A program made the position numbers and the translations under genes. The notes beneath the pieces are model-generated. The model ran no database searches and was not told the DNA's origin. It saw only the letters and a program-made list of their open reading frames with translations. From assembly GCF_988243305.1 (NCBI RefSeq), contig NZ_OZ547136.1: a DNA stretch of 64,000 nucleotides; one strand, 5' to 3'. How positions within the stretch are numbered: position 1 is the stretch's first letter; each line of letters starts with the position of its first letter. Shown here in pieces: positions 1,829 to 7,295 of this stretch.

Positions 1829-2317
1829 ATGAGTGAGATAGTGATACGCCATGCTGAAACGCGCGATTACGAGGCCATCAGGCAGATTCACGCCCAGCCG
1901 GAGGTGTATTGCAACACGCTACAGGTGCCTCATCCTTCCGATCATATGTGGCAGGAGCGACTCGCCGATCGTCCCGGCATCAAGCAACTCGTCGCCTGTA
2001 TTGATGGAGACGTCGTGGGCCATCTCACCATTGACGTGCAACAGCGCCCACGCCGCAGTCATGTTGCAGATTTTGGTATTTGTGTCGACTCCCGTTGGAA
2101 GAATCGCGGCGTCGCCAGCGCCCTGATGCGAGAGATGATTGAAATGTGCGACAACTGGTTGCGGGTAGATCGTATTGAGCTAACGGTGTTCATCGATAAC
2201 GCGCCAGCAATTAAGGTCTATAAAAAATTTGGATTTGAGATTGAAGGGACTGGCAAGAAGTACGCATTACGTAATGGTGAATATGTCGATGCGTATTATA
2301 TGGCGCGGGTGAAGTAA
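1829..2317 (+). CDS. yhhY: GNAT-family N-acetyltransferase
   Basis: ATG at 1829 preceded by AAAGGA; 162 aa starting MSEIVIRHAETRDYEAIRQIH; the ORF-track start at 1736 is probably an upstream extension. Confidence 0.85.
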   Translation: MSEIVIRHAETRDYEAIRQIHAQPEVYCNTLQVPHPSDHMWQERLADRPGIKQLVACIDGDVVGHLTIDVQQRPRRSHVADFGICVDSRWKNRGVASALMREMIEMCDNWLRVDRIELTVFIDNAPAIKVYKKFGFEIEGTGKKYALRNGEYVDAYYMARVK

Positions 2318-2324
2318 GATAGTG

Positions 2325-2349
2325 CCCTTTTTCTGAGATGGAAAAAGGG
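2325..2349 (+). terminator. Putative hairpin after yhhY
   Basis: CCCTTTTTC-tgagatg-GAAAAAGGG inverted repeat directly after the yhhY stop; no clear U-tract. Confidence 0.3.
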
Positions 2350-2551
2350 TGTCATTCAAAATCGGCATACCTTCCTTTAATGTATTTATTTTCCCAATAA
2401 ATATATAAGATTTACCTCATAATTACGTCCTAAAGTGTAATATTTTATTATTAATATATACGCCTACAATTTCCTGGAGTAAATAAATAACAATTAACAA
2501 GCATAATAGTGCCATTAATAAAATAGCATGCCATAAAAGGACTTTTCAGGG

Positions 2552-3730
2552 ATGAGTAATATTGTTTACCTGACAGTAACGGGAGAACAACAAGGAAACA
2601 TCTCCGCAGGTTGTGGGACTACTGAATCTATAGGTAATCGCTGGCAGAGTGGGCATGAGGATGAAATATTTACATTCTCACTCGCAAATAGAATTACTAA
2701 TACGGGACTTGGTTCACAGTTACAGGGTATGACATTTTGTAAATTAATTGATAAAAGCACTCCATTACTTATTAATTCCATTAACAATAATGAGCAATTA
2801 TTTATGGAATTTGACTTTTATAGAATCAATAGATTTGGTAGATGGGAAAAGTATTATTATATACAACTAAGAGGCGCTTTTTTATCGGCTATTCATCATC
2901 AGATCATTCAAAATCAACTGGATACAGAAACAATAACTGTTAGTTATGAATTTATCCTCTGTCAACATCTTATCGCAAATACCGAGTTCAGCTATTTGGC
3001 ACTCCCTGAAAATTATAACCGTTTGTTTTTACCAAATTCAAAAAACCAAACAAATAATCGTTTCAAAACTTTAAACAGCAAAGCTATTGGCAGGCTACTT
3101 GCTGCTGGTGGCGTATACAATGGGAACATTGAAGGATTCAGAGATACTGCGGAAAAACTGGGTGGAGATGCAATAAAAGGCTATGATCAAATACTAAATG
3201 AAAAAACAGCGGGCATAGCGATAGCAACAGCATCTATTCTTTTAACAAAGCGTTCTAATGTTGATACATATACAGAAATAAATAGTTACTTAGGCAAACT
3301 TAGAGGTCAACAAAAACTTCTTGATGGTATAGACATAATAGAAATAATATACATTAAGAGACCTTCAAAAGACTTAGCTAACTTACGAAAGGAGTTTAAT
3401 AAAACTGTAAGAAAAAATTTTCTTATCAAACTTGCAAAAACCTCCGAAGCATCTGGAAGATTCAACGCCGAAGACCTTTTAAGAATGAGAAAGGGCAATG
3501 TTCCTCTAAATTATAATGTTCACCATAAACTATCTCTAGATGATGGTGGTACTAATGATTTCGAAAATTTAGTATTAATCGAAAACGAACCATATCATAA
3601 AGTTTTTACTAACATGCAATCACGAATAGCTAAGGGAGTATTAGTAGGTGAAAGCAAAATCACTCCCTGGGCCATTCCATCTGGCTCAATTTATCCTCCC
3701 ATGAAAAATATTATGGAACCCACAAAATGA
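2552..3730 (+). CDS. yhhZ: Hcp-domain protein with a C-terminal HNH-like nuclease motif (T6SS-type polymorphic toxin)
   Basis: 392 aa; N-terminus IVYLTVTGEQQGN...EDEIFTFSL...KLIDKSTPLL fits the Hcp pattern; C-terminus has NVHHKLSLDDGGTNDFENLVLIENEPYH; AT-rich coding sequence. Confidence 0.85.
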   Translation: MSNIVYLTVTGEQQGNISAGCGTTESIGNRWQSGHEDEIFTFSLANRITNTGLGSQLQGMTFCKLIDKSTPLLINSINNNEQLFMEFDFYRINRFGRWEKYYYIQLRGAFLSAIHHQIIQNQLDTETITVSYEFILCQHLIANTEFSYLALPENYNRLFLPNSKNQTNNRFKTLNSKAIGRLLAAGGVYNGNIEGFRDTAEKLGGDAIKGYDQILNEKTAGIAIATASILLTKRSNVDTYTEINSYLGKLRGQQKLLDGIDIIEIIYIKRPSKDLANLRKEFNKTVRKNFLIKLAKTSEASGRFNAEDLLRMRKGNVPLNYNVHHKLSLDDGGTNDFENLVLIENEPYHKVFTNMQSRIAKGVLVGESKITPWAIPSGSIYPPMKNIMEPTK

Positions 3731-4221
3731 TGACTAAGACCCAAATAAATAAATTAAAAAAAATGATGAATGATTTAGACTATCCATTTGAAGCACCGCT
3801 TAAGGAATCATTTATTGAAAGTATAATCCAAATAGAATTTAATTCTAATTCAACTAATTGCCTGGAGAAGTTATGTAATGAAGTTAGTATTCTTTTTAAG
3901 AATCAACCTGATTATCTTACTTTTTTAAGAGCAATGGATGGATTCGAAGCTAATGGATTACGATTATTTAGCCTCTCGATTCCAGAACCTTCAGTTAAAA
4001 ACCTTTTTGCCGTAAATGAATTTTATAGAAATAATGATGATTTCATAAACCCTGATCTACAAGAACGGTTAGTGATCGGTGATGATAGCATTTCAATATT
4101 TACTTATGACATTAAAAATAACTTTTTTGAAATTAGAGATAATATTGGCACCGAAAATATATTCAGTTCGTTTAGTGATTTCTCTTCATTCTTAAACGAA
4201 ATCATGGACAGTTGTTCATAA
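3727..4221 (+). CDS. yrhA: Putative cognate immunity protein, translationally coupled to yhhZ
   Basis: 164-aa ORF overlapping the yhhZ stop (ATGA); AT-rich; intact here, whereas the K-12 locus is recalled to be interrupted by IS1. Confidence 0.6.
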   Translation: MMTKTQINKLKKMMNDLDYPFEAPLKESFIESIIQIEFNSNSTNCLEKLCNEVSILFKNQPDYLTFLRAMDGFEANGLRLFSLSIPEPSVKNLFAVNEFYRNNDDFINPDLQERLVIGDDSISIFTYDIKNNFFEIRDNIGTENIFSSFSDFSSFLNEIMDSCS

Positions 4222-4670
4222 TAATCAAAAGATAACAAAAATCATTGTAAACCATGCCATCTTTTTAGAGATTACCAGCAGAAAATTCCTTGTTCGAAAC
4301 TTAGCAATGCAAGCTATGGAAAAACTTACAACGGAACTACACTCCTTAAGTGAGATGGACCGAAGACATGTAATCTCTATTTTAGCCGAAATAGCTAATG
4401 GCTATGATGATTTTAGTGACATGTTGATTTAGTTAGAATTTCACCCGAATCATAAGATTCTGATATCTTAAATAAGAAAATCCCGTTCGACGTTCTGAAA
4501 AAGAAATCACAAAATATTAGCAGATACTTATTTCGTGACTGTATATTATCCGATGAACTTTTTTCAAAACTAGCATTTAATAATATCTTTGACGAAGATG
4601 AACGCGTCTTTGCTCAAAGTATAACGCAGGAATAATAATATAACGTTCAACAATAATATTTATTATAATT

Positions 4671-4955
4671 ATGATTACTTATCACGACGCATTCGCGAAA
4701 GCGAACCATTACCTTGATGATGCAGATCTCGCCGTCGTCATTACTCTACATGGACGCTTTAGCCAGGGCTGGTATTTCTGTTTCGAAGCACGAGAATTTC
4801 TCGAAACTGGTGATGAGGCCGCGCGTTTATCCGGTAACGCACCTTTTATTATTGATAAAGACAGTGGTGAAATTCATTCCCTTGGAACGGCAAAGCCGCT
4901 GGAAGAATATCTACAGGATTATGAAATAAAAAAGGCTACCTTCGGCTTGCCCTGA
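4671..4955 (+). CDS. yrhB: Small protein YrhB
   Basis: 94-aa ORF MITYHDAFAKANHYLDD... matching E. coli YrhB as recalled. Confidence 0.8.
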   Translation: MITYHDAFAKANHYLDDADLAVVITLHGRFSQGWYFCFEAREFLETGDEAARLSGNAPFIIDKDSGEIHSLGTAKPLEEYLQDYEIKKATFGLP

Positions 4956-4992: not shown

Positions 4993-6735
4993 TTAATACC
5001 CCGCCGTTAAATCATCCACCGAGCGCGGATCGGATGCACCGTACAGCTCACCGTCCGGCCCAACCATAATGCTTTGTGTACTGCCCATCGCCTCTTTCAG
5101 CGCCACTTTCTGACCTTTTGCTTCCAGCAGCTTGAGCGTATCCGGGCTAAACCCTTTTTCGACACGCAGCTCGTCCGGCAACCACTGATGGTGGAAACGC
5201 GGTGCATTGGTCGCTTCGGCGACATTCATACCATAATCGATGCTGTTCACCACCATTTGCAGCACGGTAGTGATAATCCGGCTCCCGCCAGGGCTACCGG
5301 TAACCAGCCAGGTTTTACCGTCTTTCACCACAATGGTTGGGGACATCGACGACAGCGGGCGTTTATTCGGCCCGACCGCGTTGGCGTCACCACCCACCAG
5401 CCCGTAAACGTTCGGTACGCCAGGTTTGGCGGAGAAATCATCCATTTGGTTATTAAGCAGAATACCGCTCTCGCCCGCGACAATGCCCGTCCCGAAGGTG
5501 GTGTTCAGCGTATAGGTCACCGCTACCGCGTTGCCGTCTTTATCCACCACTGAGTAATGGGTAGTTTGATTACTCTCATAAGGCGCAAGCTTGCCGGGGC
5601 GAATTTCGCTGGATGGCTTCGCTTTATTGATATCGATTTGATCGGCAATAGATTTGGCATAGGCTTTATTGGTCAGCGCCTGCCACGGAACTTTGACAAA
5701 ATCCGGGTCGCCAAGATATTCCGAGCGGTCGGCGTAGGCATATTTCTCAGCTTCTGCCATGATTTGCATCGCGTCGGCGCTGCCAAAGCCGTATTTCTTC
5801 ATATCGAAGTTTTCCAGAATATTGAGGATTTGTACGATATGGATCCCGCCGGAAGATGGCGGTGGCATGGAGTAAACCTGATACCCGCGATAATCGCCGC
5901 TTATTGGTGTGCGCTCGACCGCTTTATACGCCGCTAAATCTTCTTTCGTGATCAGGCCGCCGTTTTTCTGCATCTCCTGAGCGATCTGCTCCGCTATTGT
6001 GCCTTTATAGAATTCGTCCGGGCCATTTTCGGCAATCATCTCCAGGCTCTTTGCCAGGTTCGCCTGCACCAGTTTGTCGCCCTTTTTCAGCGGCTCGCCC
6101 TCTTTCCAGAAGATAGCCTTGCTGTTTTCGTGATTCGGCAACACTTCGCTACCGTAGGTTTTGAGATCGTCAGCCAACGCGTCGTTAACGATAAAACCAT
6201 CGCGTGCCAGTTTAAACGCTGGCTGCACCACTTTGTTTAACGGCATGGTGCCGTATTTATCCAACGCCAGCGAGAAACCTGCTACCGTACCGGGCGTACC
6301 AGAAGCCAGATGCGAAGTGAGTGATTTTTTGCTGTCCGGGTTACCCTGATCATCAAGGAACATATCGCGGGTCGCTTTGGCGGGTGCCATTTCGCGGAAA
6401 TCGATAGCGGTGGTATTGCCATTTTTCGAGCGGATTAACATAAAACCACCACCGCCCAGATTCCCTGCCTGCGGATGCGTTACCGCCAGCGCGTAGCCCA
6501 CCGCCACGGCGGCATCAACGGCATTCCCACCCTCCTTGAGGATATCCACGCCCACCTGAGTGGCAGTAGCATCTACAGACGCCACCATCCCCTGTTTCGC
6601 GCGTACCGGATGGAAGACATCTTCCTCCACGCCATAAGAAACAGGTGGCGGAGGAGGCGCGGCGGCGGCGCTAAAACAACTTCCTGAGAGCAGAGCAGCA
6701 ATGGCCACCCGGCGTAAAAACGTCGGTTTTATCAT
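4993..6735 (-). CDS. ggt: Gamma-glutamyltranspeptidase
   Basis: ORF 4993..6762; start placed at MIKPTFLRR (580 aa) as in E. coli Ggt; signal peptide present. Confidence 0.95.
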   Translation of the reverse strand: MIKPTFLRRVAIAALLSGSCFSAAAAPPPPPVSYGVEEDVFHPVRAKQGMVASVDATATQVGVDILKEGGNAVDAAVAVGYALAVTHPQAGNLGGGGFMLIRSKNGNTTAIDFREMAPAKATRDMFLDDQGNPDSKKSLTSHLASGTPGTVAGFSLALDKYGTMPLNKVVQPAFKLARDGFIVNDALADDLKTYGSEVLPNHENSKAIFWKEGEPLKKGDKLVQANLAKSLEMIAENGPDEFYKGTIAEQIAQEMQKNGGLITKEDLAAYKAVERTPISGDYRGYQVYSMPPPSSGGIHIVQILNILENFDMKKYGFGSADAMQIMAEAEKYAYADRSEYLGDPDFVKVPWQALTNKAYAKSIADQIDINKAKPSSEIRPGKLAPYESNQTTHYSVVDKDGNAVAVTYTLNTTFGTGIVAGESGILLNNQMDDFSAKPGVPNVYGLVGGDANAVGPNKRPLSSMSPTIVVKDGKTWLVTGSPGGSRIITTVLQMVVNSIDYGMNVAEATNAPRFHHQWLPDELRVEKGFSPDTLKLLEAKGQKVALKEAMGSTQSIMVGPDGELYGASDPRSVDDLTAGY

Positions 6736-6854
6736 CGTTATTCTCCAGAGATTAAGGGGCAACCCCAGCTAAGCCTGGTATATAACTCTGAATTAATCCT
6801 GATGATTGCAGGAAAGGAGTAAACTTAAAGAATATCTTCAGAGGAGGATACGCG

Positions 6855-7295
6855 ATGAAACGACTTCTGATTCTTACGGCACTCCTGCCGTTTGTCGGCT
6901 TTGCACAGCCCATTAATACTCTGAACAACCCTAACCAGCCGGGGTATCAGATCCCCAGTCAGCAGCGGATGCAAACCCAGATGCAAACGCAGCAAATCCA
7001 GCAAAAAGGGATGCTGAATCAGCAACTGAAAACGCAAACTCAGTTGCAACAACAGCATTTAGAAAACCAGATAAACAATAATTCACAGCGGGTGTTGCAG
7101 TCACAGCCGGGGGAGCGAAATCCCGCCCGGCAGCAAATGCTGCCCAACACCAACGGCGGGATGTTAAACAGCAACCGTAATCCGGATAGTTCGTTGAATC
7201 AGCAGCATATGCTGCCGGAGAGGAGAAACGGCGACATGCTGAATCAGCCCGGCACGCCGCAGCCTGATATACCGTTGAAAACTATTGGGCCGTAA
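6855..7295 (+). CDS. yhhA: Secreted Gln/Asn-rich protein YhhA (DUF2756)
   Basis: 146 aa with an N-terminal signal peptide and a low-complexity Q/N-rich body; 14-bp overlap with the convergent ugpQ. Confidence 0.85.

Follow-up and report, generated by a model that had tools for sequence, protein, structure and literature searches.

Two probable orphan-immunity pseudogenes in tandem between yrhA and yrhB, at the 3′ end of a type VI secretion effector islet of Escherichia coli

Organization of the yhhY–ggt interval

The window analyzed here is a 64,000-nucleotide (64-kb) stretch of an E. coli chromosome (RefSeq assembly GCF_988243305.1, contig NZ_OZ547136.1), in which yhhY is followed by yhhZ (tssD), yrhA, an interval at positions 4222-4670, yrhB, and ggt on the minus strand. 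The genes flanking the interval, yrhA (3727-4221) and yrhB (4671-4955), were assigned from the RefSeq annotation of an identical genome. The GC content of the interval is 0.31-0.34, versus 0.50-0.60 in the flanking backbone, and zero ORFs of at least 60 codons are found in it when both strands are listed, as a preliminary description of this AT-rich stretch had stated. The features of the locus are as follows.

2316-4654, no strand assigned: AT-rich islet between yhhY and yrhB (GC 0.28-0.35), containing yhhZ, yrhA, and two pseudogenes
2552-3730, plus strand: yhhZ/tssD, fusion of an Hcp tube protein and an HNH-type nuclease domain, the intact effector of the islet (Pfam, NCBIfam, RefSeq annotation)
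3727-4221, plus strand: yrhA, intact, presumed cognate immunity gene of the YrhA/YPO0640 family (NCBIfam NF038335, E 4.4e-37)
4223-4471, plus strand: pseudogene 1 (frame 2), remnant of a fam1 immunity-type gene of ~82 aa (alignment, BLASTP, HMM)
4307-4432, plus strand: residual ORF, truncated yrhD allele (ORF listing, K-12 comparison, PGAP label)
4471-4635, plus strand: pseudogene 2 (frame 1), N-terminal 54 codons of a fam2 gene of 85-88 aa (BLASTP, family alignment, HMM, DNA alignment)
4671-4955, plus strand: yrhB, intact orphan immunity-type gene of the Imm35 family on the backbone side of the junction (Pfam PF15567, E 4.4e-22)

The product of yhhZ matches the Pfam family T6SS_HCP (E 1.3e-12), HNH weakly, and NCBIfam TIGR03344 (E 2.4e-36). 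In E. coli GZM7 (L005), which lacks the islet, BLASTN homology to the window stops at 2315 and restarts at 4655; 95 unrelated bases replace the islet, and yhhY is followed almost directly by yrhB. By this comparison the islet spans 2316-4654, which places the interval at the 3′ end of an acquired islet of ~2.3 kb. The yrhB gene is kept even in E. coli without the whole islet, and no toxin lies near it; as an Imm35 member retained without the islet, it appears to be an orphan immunity gene too, the third one at this site, and is intact. The interval itself was detected by megablast in 4048 of 5426 complete E. coli genomes, on the chromosome every time, and the feature annotated under the matches is “protein YrhD”.

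The fragments had also been suggested to be sequence around the insertion point of IS1 in K-12, which proved wrong. The K-12 IS1 (777 bp including the target duplication) maps after window position ~4107, inside yrhA, and neither an IS1 end sequence nor a target duplication occurs in 4222-4670. Alignment with the K-12 yrhA-IS1-yrhB region, the check proposed with that suggestion, showed point substitutions only and no indel within the interval.

The first fragment is a truncated yrhD allele

An ORF of 41 aa opening with ATG occupies 4307-4432, stop included, and translates to MQAMEKLTTELHSLSEMDRRHVISILAEIANGYDDFSDMLI. The preliminary description had given this translation exactly, but its coordinates (4306-4431) were one base off, and the ORF is not anonymous as it had appeared there, since it is the annotated K-12 gene yrhD (b4612, 51 aa, MEKL...KILIS; UniProt entry YRHD_ECOLI) shortened by a TAT-to-TAG nonsense change at 4430-4432. 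DNA identity to K-12 at yrhD, in the syntenic position between yrhA and yrhB, is 96-97%. The K-12 start corresponds to the ATG at 4316, and the upstream ATG at 4307, which is GTG in K-12, adds three codons. The TAG falls at yrhD codon 39 and costs the last 13 codons, leaving 38, or 41 when counted from the upstream ATG, so that the intact 51-codon ORF is absent from the window; over residues 1-38 the window and K-12 sequences show two differences, V20I and N34S. In identical genomes, PGAP already calls this allele a pseudogene at the equivalent of 4316-4429, under the names “protein YrhD, incomplete” or “hypothetical protein”. When complete genomes were sorted by identity band and annotation, the following allele classes were obtained.

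K-12-type allele: 2846 genomes; 51-codon yrhD ORF intact
H22-type allele: 481 genomes; ATG-to-ATA change and an internal TAG in yrhD
Window-type allele: 475 genomes; TAG at yrhD codon 39
Region absent: about 1620 genomes; no yrhD

Pseudogene 1 belongs to a family found next to toxin C-terminal domains

A query fusing the two fragments returned E. coli-type sequences only in a word-indexed search of 5.8 billion proteins, and an exhaustive HMMER search, covering 1.84 billion representative proteins, likewise gave YrhD relatives of E. coli type only. One distant match, P0014 (1824 aa), was matched over eight short stretches and was treated as compositional. A tblastn search of a plasmid collection gave only three mislabelled E. 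coli chromosomes. Because the fragment searches stayed within E. coli, loci encoding YrhA relatives in other genera were examined, and homologs of both fragments, grouped as fam1 and fam2, were reached through synteny by tblastn against these loci. The homolog check proposed with the preliminary description thus gave E. coli-type sequences alone in direct protein searches, but yielded intact homologs by this indirect route. No Pfam or NCBIfam model was matched above its cut-off by the remnants, by the intact members of fam1 and fam2, or by the associated toxin C-terminal domains; the curated immunity families (Imm35, Imm63, Imm70, SMI1/KNR4, and others) matched neither the remnants nor the intact members; and no relative of fam1 or fam2 was found in the PDB.

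In frame 2, the stretch 4223-4468 comprises 82 codons beginning right after the yrhA stop, and it aligns end to end with an 82-aa ORF of Leclercia at 33-34% identity (BLASTP, 41.6 bits). The Leclercia ORF, first seen as a weak tblastn match, sits in a CdiA orphan array. A profile HMM built from ten fam1 members, none of them from E. coli, was searched against the six-frame translation of the window and matched only the frame stretch 4196-4429 (57.0 bits, E 2.4e-16), the match covering 4220-4411 and model positions 3-66 of 82. The original stop of the gene is the TAA at 4469-4471, upstream of which lies the in-frame TAG at 4430-4432. The first 28 codons have no start codon, and the window sequence holds no in-frame ATG, GTG, or TTG between 4196 and 4306; YrhD is therefore equivalent to the last 51 residues of the ancestral protein, and K-12 yrhD itself appears, from these sequence comparisons, to represent the final 51 codons of a gene of ~82 codons that has decayed. 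AlphaFold predicts fam1 as four helices (pLDDT 82), and in this model the YrhD ORF corresponds to helices 2-4, with helix 1 missing. Foldseek comparison of the model with the PDB gave no significant match (best E 1.4). A weak BLAST segment of 19.6 bits pairs the C-terminal “DMLIYLEF” of YrhD with the N-terminal “DMAIFLEF” of fam1; a tandem second fam1 copy, which this segment might suggest, was not claimed because the score is too weak.

In a scan of one genome per species, fam1 was found at nine loci, in Leclercia, Silvania, Pantoea, Collimonas, Azonexus, Paraburkholderia, and Sphingomonas, as ORFs of 81-85 aa in which the AIFLEF motif is invariant. The fam1 gene overlaps the stop of the upstream ORF in Leclercia (L017, 1305-1559), Azonexus (L022, 1025-1282), and Sphingomonas (L024, 3959-4204), and the C-terminal ~125-160 aa of these three upstream ORFs are 45-66% identical to one another, ending in “...LGIKNIxVKxV”. 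In Leclercia this C-terminal domain follows a PT-VENN pre-toxin domain, and VENN pre-toxin domains are typical of CdiA-type toxins. An arrangement of this kind is the genetic hallmark of a toxin C-terminal domain paired with the immunity gene cognate to it. The E. coli copy follows yrhA, and no cognate toxin is found near it in the window.

The CdiA orphan array of Leclercia L017 carries three fam1 copies (1305-1559, 3246-3497, and 3998-4246), namely a copy cognate to the VENN-CT module, a degenerate copy, and a copy preceded by a 160-aa ORF, with small ORFs for membrane proteins of 73-79 aa in between. In another Leclercia locus (L012), a YrhA-family gene and an upstream effector-like gene (DUF8093) occupy 2845-4501, and an intact fam1 gene (6633-6881) is encoded on the other strand, ~2 kb from the YrhA-family gene, where a CdiA orphan array ends. 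The gene types that adjoin in E. coli are therefore also close together in Leclercia.

Pseudogene 2 belongs to a family found next to an Rhs toxin domain

The second fragment had been described as a startless open frame ending at about 4632, and frame 1 is indeed open without a start for 59 codons at 4456-4632, ending in ...DELFSKLAFNNIFDEDERVFAQSITQE and followed by two stops. Its intact counterpart was found at the syntenic locus of Citrobacter youngae (yhhY, hcp fusion, yrhA ortholog, ggt), where an 85-aa fam2 ORF begins 20 bp after the yrhA ortholog. The E. coli fragment is 47% identical over 53 aa to residues 2-54 of this ORF (BLASTP, 51.6 bits), and a fam2 HMM built without E. coli sequence matched only the frame stretch 4456-4632 of the window (45.1 bits, E 1.1e-12; model positions 2-52 of 87). 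At the position of the Citrobacter ATG, the E. coli copy reads AAT; its stop is at 4633-4635, and the C-terminal ~31 codons are absent. Both DNA and protein homology to fam2 end at residue 54 (~4632), ~20 bp before the right junction of the islet at 4654/4655; the conserved C-terminal third is therefore gone in E. coli, including the conserved segment RxRMNIYxGEGxVEYVGLER. The stop of pseudogene 1 (TAA, 4469-4471) shares one base with the AAT at 4471-4473 that is ATG in Citrobacter. More speculatively, if stop and start overlapped as TAATG in the ancestor, the two immunity genes would then have been neighbors coupled in translation.

The fam2 family comprises 33 clusters, nearly all of 85-88 aa, from many Citrobacter species and Budvicia; its members are all annotated as “hypothetical”, and none carries a Pfam domain. 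The predicted fam2 model (pLDDT 43) was too poor for use. At five loci outside Citrobacter (L014, L015, L016, L026, and L027), a fam2 gene begins 1-2 bp beyond an Rhs C-terminal toxin domain, and the Rhs protein of L026 is full-length (1654 aa). The core of this Rhs protein type matches solved Rhs structures (E 7.5e-33), and the fam2-linked C-terminal domain of ~155 aa is 67-99% identical among the four loci directly compared. In L016 the Rhs C-terminus is frameshifted, with 74-87% identity to the Budvicia domain; an 82-aa ORF upstream of fam2 in this locus, considered as a possible ancestor of YrhD, was rejected as part of that frameshifted C-terminus. The domain carries a conserved SSHVHPDG...SxGD motif (L014:3977-4999; L026:1-3998; L027:1-588), which recalls a metal-binding site, and it has no relative in Pfam, NCBIfam, or the PDB. 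In Budvicia L014, an ORF of 165-175 aa beginning MKKEVCGLCNN follows each fam2 copy and also the main Rhs gene (1899-2396, 3252-3779, and 5304-5801); these ORFs have no Pfam match and could represent a second immunity or accessory family.

These results bear on the possibility that the fragments are merely chance ORFs in a random AT-rich spacer, or the scar of the K-12 IS1. The AT-rich composition and the absence of longer ORFs would be expected of such a spacer. However, two independent profiles match exactly these two stretches, at E values between 1e-12 and 1e-16, and no other part of the window, where the next-best matches of both HMMs have E > 2; an intact gene stands at the syntenic position in Citrobacter; and the IS1 lies within yrhA while the interval is free of indels. 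This explanation is therefore regarded as refuted. The description of the fragments as degraded genes was correct, in that both are truncated and homologous to families of small proteins, and the further proposal that they are remnants of additional immunity genes gains support from the occurrence of both families elsewhere directly downstream of a polymorphic-toxin C-terminal domain.

Variation at the yhhY–ggt locus extends beyond the two remnants. In C. youngae (L007), an extra 294-aa ORF precedes the hcp fusion (1671-2555), and an ORF of 83-87 aa that is not assigned to a family (L007:4807-5070) takes the place of yrhB; in C. koseri, an 81-aa ORF (L010:2581-2826) occupies the corresponding position before ggt. 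In E. coli SX12 (L006:3617-4945), an IS1 truncates tssD/yhhZ and adjoins yrhB, and yrhA, yrhD, and pseudogene 2 are gone, which is an independent IS1-mediated erosion of the islet. The yhhY-ggt interval is thus a hotspot that gains, swaps, and erodes toxin/immunity cassettes in Escherichia and Citrobacter.

Decay of the two genes within E. coli

Within 4222-4670, the three E. coli alleles differ by substitutions only, without indels; the window allele has 17 relative to K-12 and 36 relative to H22. Each allele carries its own disabling changes: TAG at yrhD codon 39 in the window allele; ATG-to-ATA and TAG at codon 23 of pseudogene 1, together with a stop at codon 49 of pseudogene 2, in the H22 type; and, in K-12, a pseudogene 2 interrupted by a stop at codon 14. 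In a further E. coli variant (P0001, a 150,806-bp contig), a small deletion joins the yrhD frame to the pseudogene 2 frame and creates a chimeric ORF of 63 aa, …YPNHTDILNKKIPFDVLKKKS. At the nucleotide level, the window and H22 diverge by 8.0% in the interval, compared with 3.0-5.7% in the flanking genes. The Nei-Gojobori dN/dS ratio is 0.95-1.5 for pseudogene 1, 0.2-1.2 for pseudogene 2, and 0.06-0.46 for yhhZ, yrhA, and yrhB; these values derive from just 6-20 substitutions per comparison and so serve as supporting evidence only.

The allele data are also relevant to the view that E. coli has in yrhD a true small-protein gene, of which the window allele is a loss-of-function variant, and that the second fragment alone is a pseudogene. 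Of the 3802 genomes that carry the region, about 2846 (about 75%) retain the 51-codon ORF intact, PGAP names a gene there, and yrhD is treated as a gene in the K-12 annotation and has its own UniProt entry. The near identity of the intact copies, however, reflects shared ancestry rather than demonstrated constraint, and the two other widespread alleles, which make up about 25% of the carriers, are disabled in different ways. Furthermore, the ORF covers three helices of a predicted four-helix family without the first, the 28 codons upstream of it are still in frame and homologous to fam1 despite having no start, and its dN/dS ratio is about 1. Protein searches gave no homolog of the 51-aa form outside E. 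coli, and neither a functional study of yrhD nor a report of its expression was found among the searchable papers. A genuine yrhD gene is accordingly considered improbable, and there is little chance that the K-12-type ORF is translated and does anything. Marginally less probable again is a related scenario, in which translation of the ORF would yield a micro-protein rescued from a defunct immunity gene, with some residual or new activity, and fam1 and fam2 with their partner toxins would form new pairs; if this were true, the window allele would be a natural yrhD knockout.

Persistence of the remnants could also be explained if they served as non-coding sequence, either as the promoter or 5′ leader of yrhB or as a small RNA. 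A weak sigma-70-like match at 4647-4675, just upstream of yrhB, and the maintenance of the region without indels in three divergent alleles are compatible with such a role. On the other hand, promoter-like sites in the interval are at the level of shuffled sequence (3 found versus 3.4 expected), no terminator is present there, and no Rfam family was found within 4222-4670, the sole match of the scan being a sub-threshold one at 4021-4117 in yrhA. Moreover, the interval diverges faster than its flanking genes, and yrhB in strains without the islet is expressed from a different upstream sequence of 95 bp. A non-coding function is thus very unlikely, clearly more so than a coding one for yrhD.

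Proposed origin of the interval

Taken together, the interval 4222-4670 is best explained as the decaying 3′ end of a type VI secretion effector islet that contains two tandem orphan-immunity pseudogenes, a reading to which a probability of roughly 0.87 is assigned. It draws on direct observations, namely the homology and colinearity of the remnants with intact genes, synteny, the position of their relatives with respect to toxins, lineage-specific disabling mutations, and substitution patterns. The islet of ~2.3 kb would have been acquired horizontally with the Hcp-HNH effector gene yhhZ and the immunity gene yrhA. The ancestor of pseudogene 1 probably encoded a protein of ~82 aa, predicted to form four helices, whose intact relatives follow one conserved toxin C-terminal domain. 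In E. coli this gene has lost its start codon, an internal Met leaving the 51-codon ORF that is named yrhD in K-12, and in the window strain a further TAT-to-TAG change trims the ORF to 38 codons (41 from the upstream ATG). The ancestor of pseudogene 2 probably encoded a protein of 85-88 aa, with intact relatives located 1-2 bp after one Rhs-CT and, as an orphan, beside yrhA in Citrobacter; in E. coli it has lost its ATG, and its last third was removed at or near the right junction of the islet. Most likely, both remnants were carried in with the Hcp-HNH/YrhA cassette or accreted onto it, and they may now be eroding neutrally.

The location of fam1 after homologous toxin C-terminal domains in three genera, and of fam2 after one Rhs-CT at five loci, in combination with what is known of CDI and Rhs systems, suggests that the intact ancestors bound and neutralized cognate toxins. 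The window contains a cognate toxin for neither family and so gives no direct indication that these genes ever functioned in E. coli. The remnants presumably make no functional product at present and persist only because deletion has yet to remove them.

For annotation, the K-12 reference gene yrhD is best regarded as an ORF left over from an orphan immunity gene that has decayed, and pseudogene 2, which follows it, is unannotated in the RefSeq records inspected. Modestly new, besides these two points, is the recognition of two small immunity-type families and their partner toxin domains, which are undescribed in Pfam, NCBIfam, and the PDB. The phenomenon itself is of a known kind, pseudogenized orphan immunity genes at a toxin-immunity hotspot undergoing ordinary gene decay, and the understanding of how toxin-immunity systems work is unchanged by these findings.

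Comparison with known systems

The window shares both locus and sequence with yrhD of K-12 (b4612), but its copy is truncated at codon 39. The intact part of the islet, an Hcp-HNH fusion followed by the small overlapping gene yrhA, resembles a module of the Hcp-ET1/ETI1 type (Hcp with an HNH-DNase extension plus an immunity gene), of which yhhZ is presumably a member; in contrast, the remnants come after the effector/yrhA pair and are unrelated in sequence to YrhA. Like them, the Imm35 gene yrhB (PF15567) is a small orphan immunity-type gene at the same hotspot, although it has no sequence relation to either remnant, is intact, and lies on the backbone side of the junction.

The CDI (cdiA-CT/cdiI) and Rhs (rhs-CT/rhsI) arrays of Enterobacteria harbor orphan immunity genes. 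Unlike these, the E. coli copies of fam1 and fam2 are pseudogenes in an islet of a T6SS Hcp effector, outside any CDI or Rhs array. In other respects the two families resemble such orphan genes: they are small, their intact relatives are encoded directly 3′ of a variable toxin C-terminal domain, Leclercia L017 and Budvicia L014 have orphan arrays with several copies, and toxinless orphans are found in Citrobacter and E. coli.
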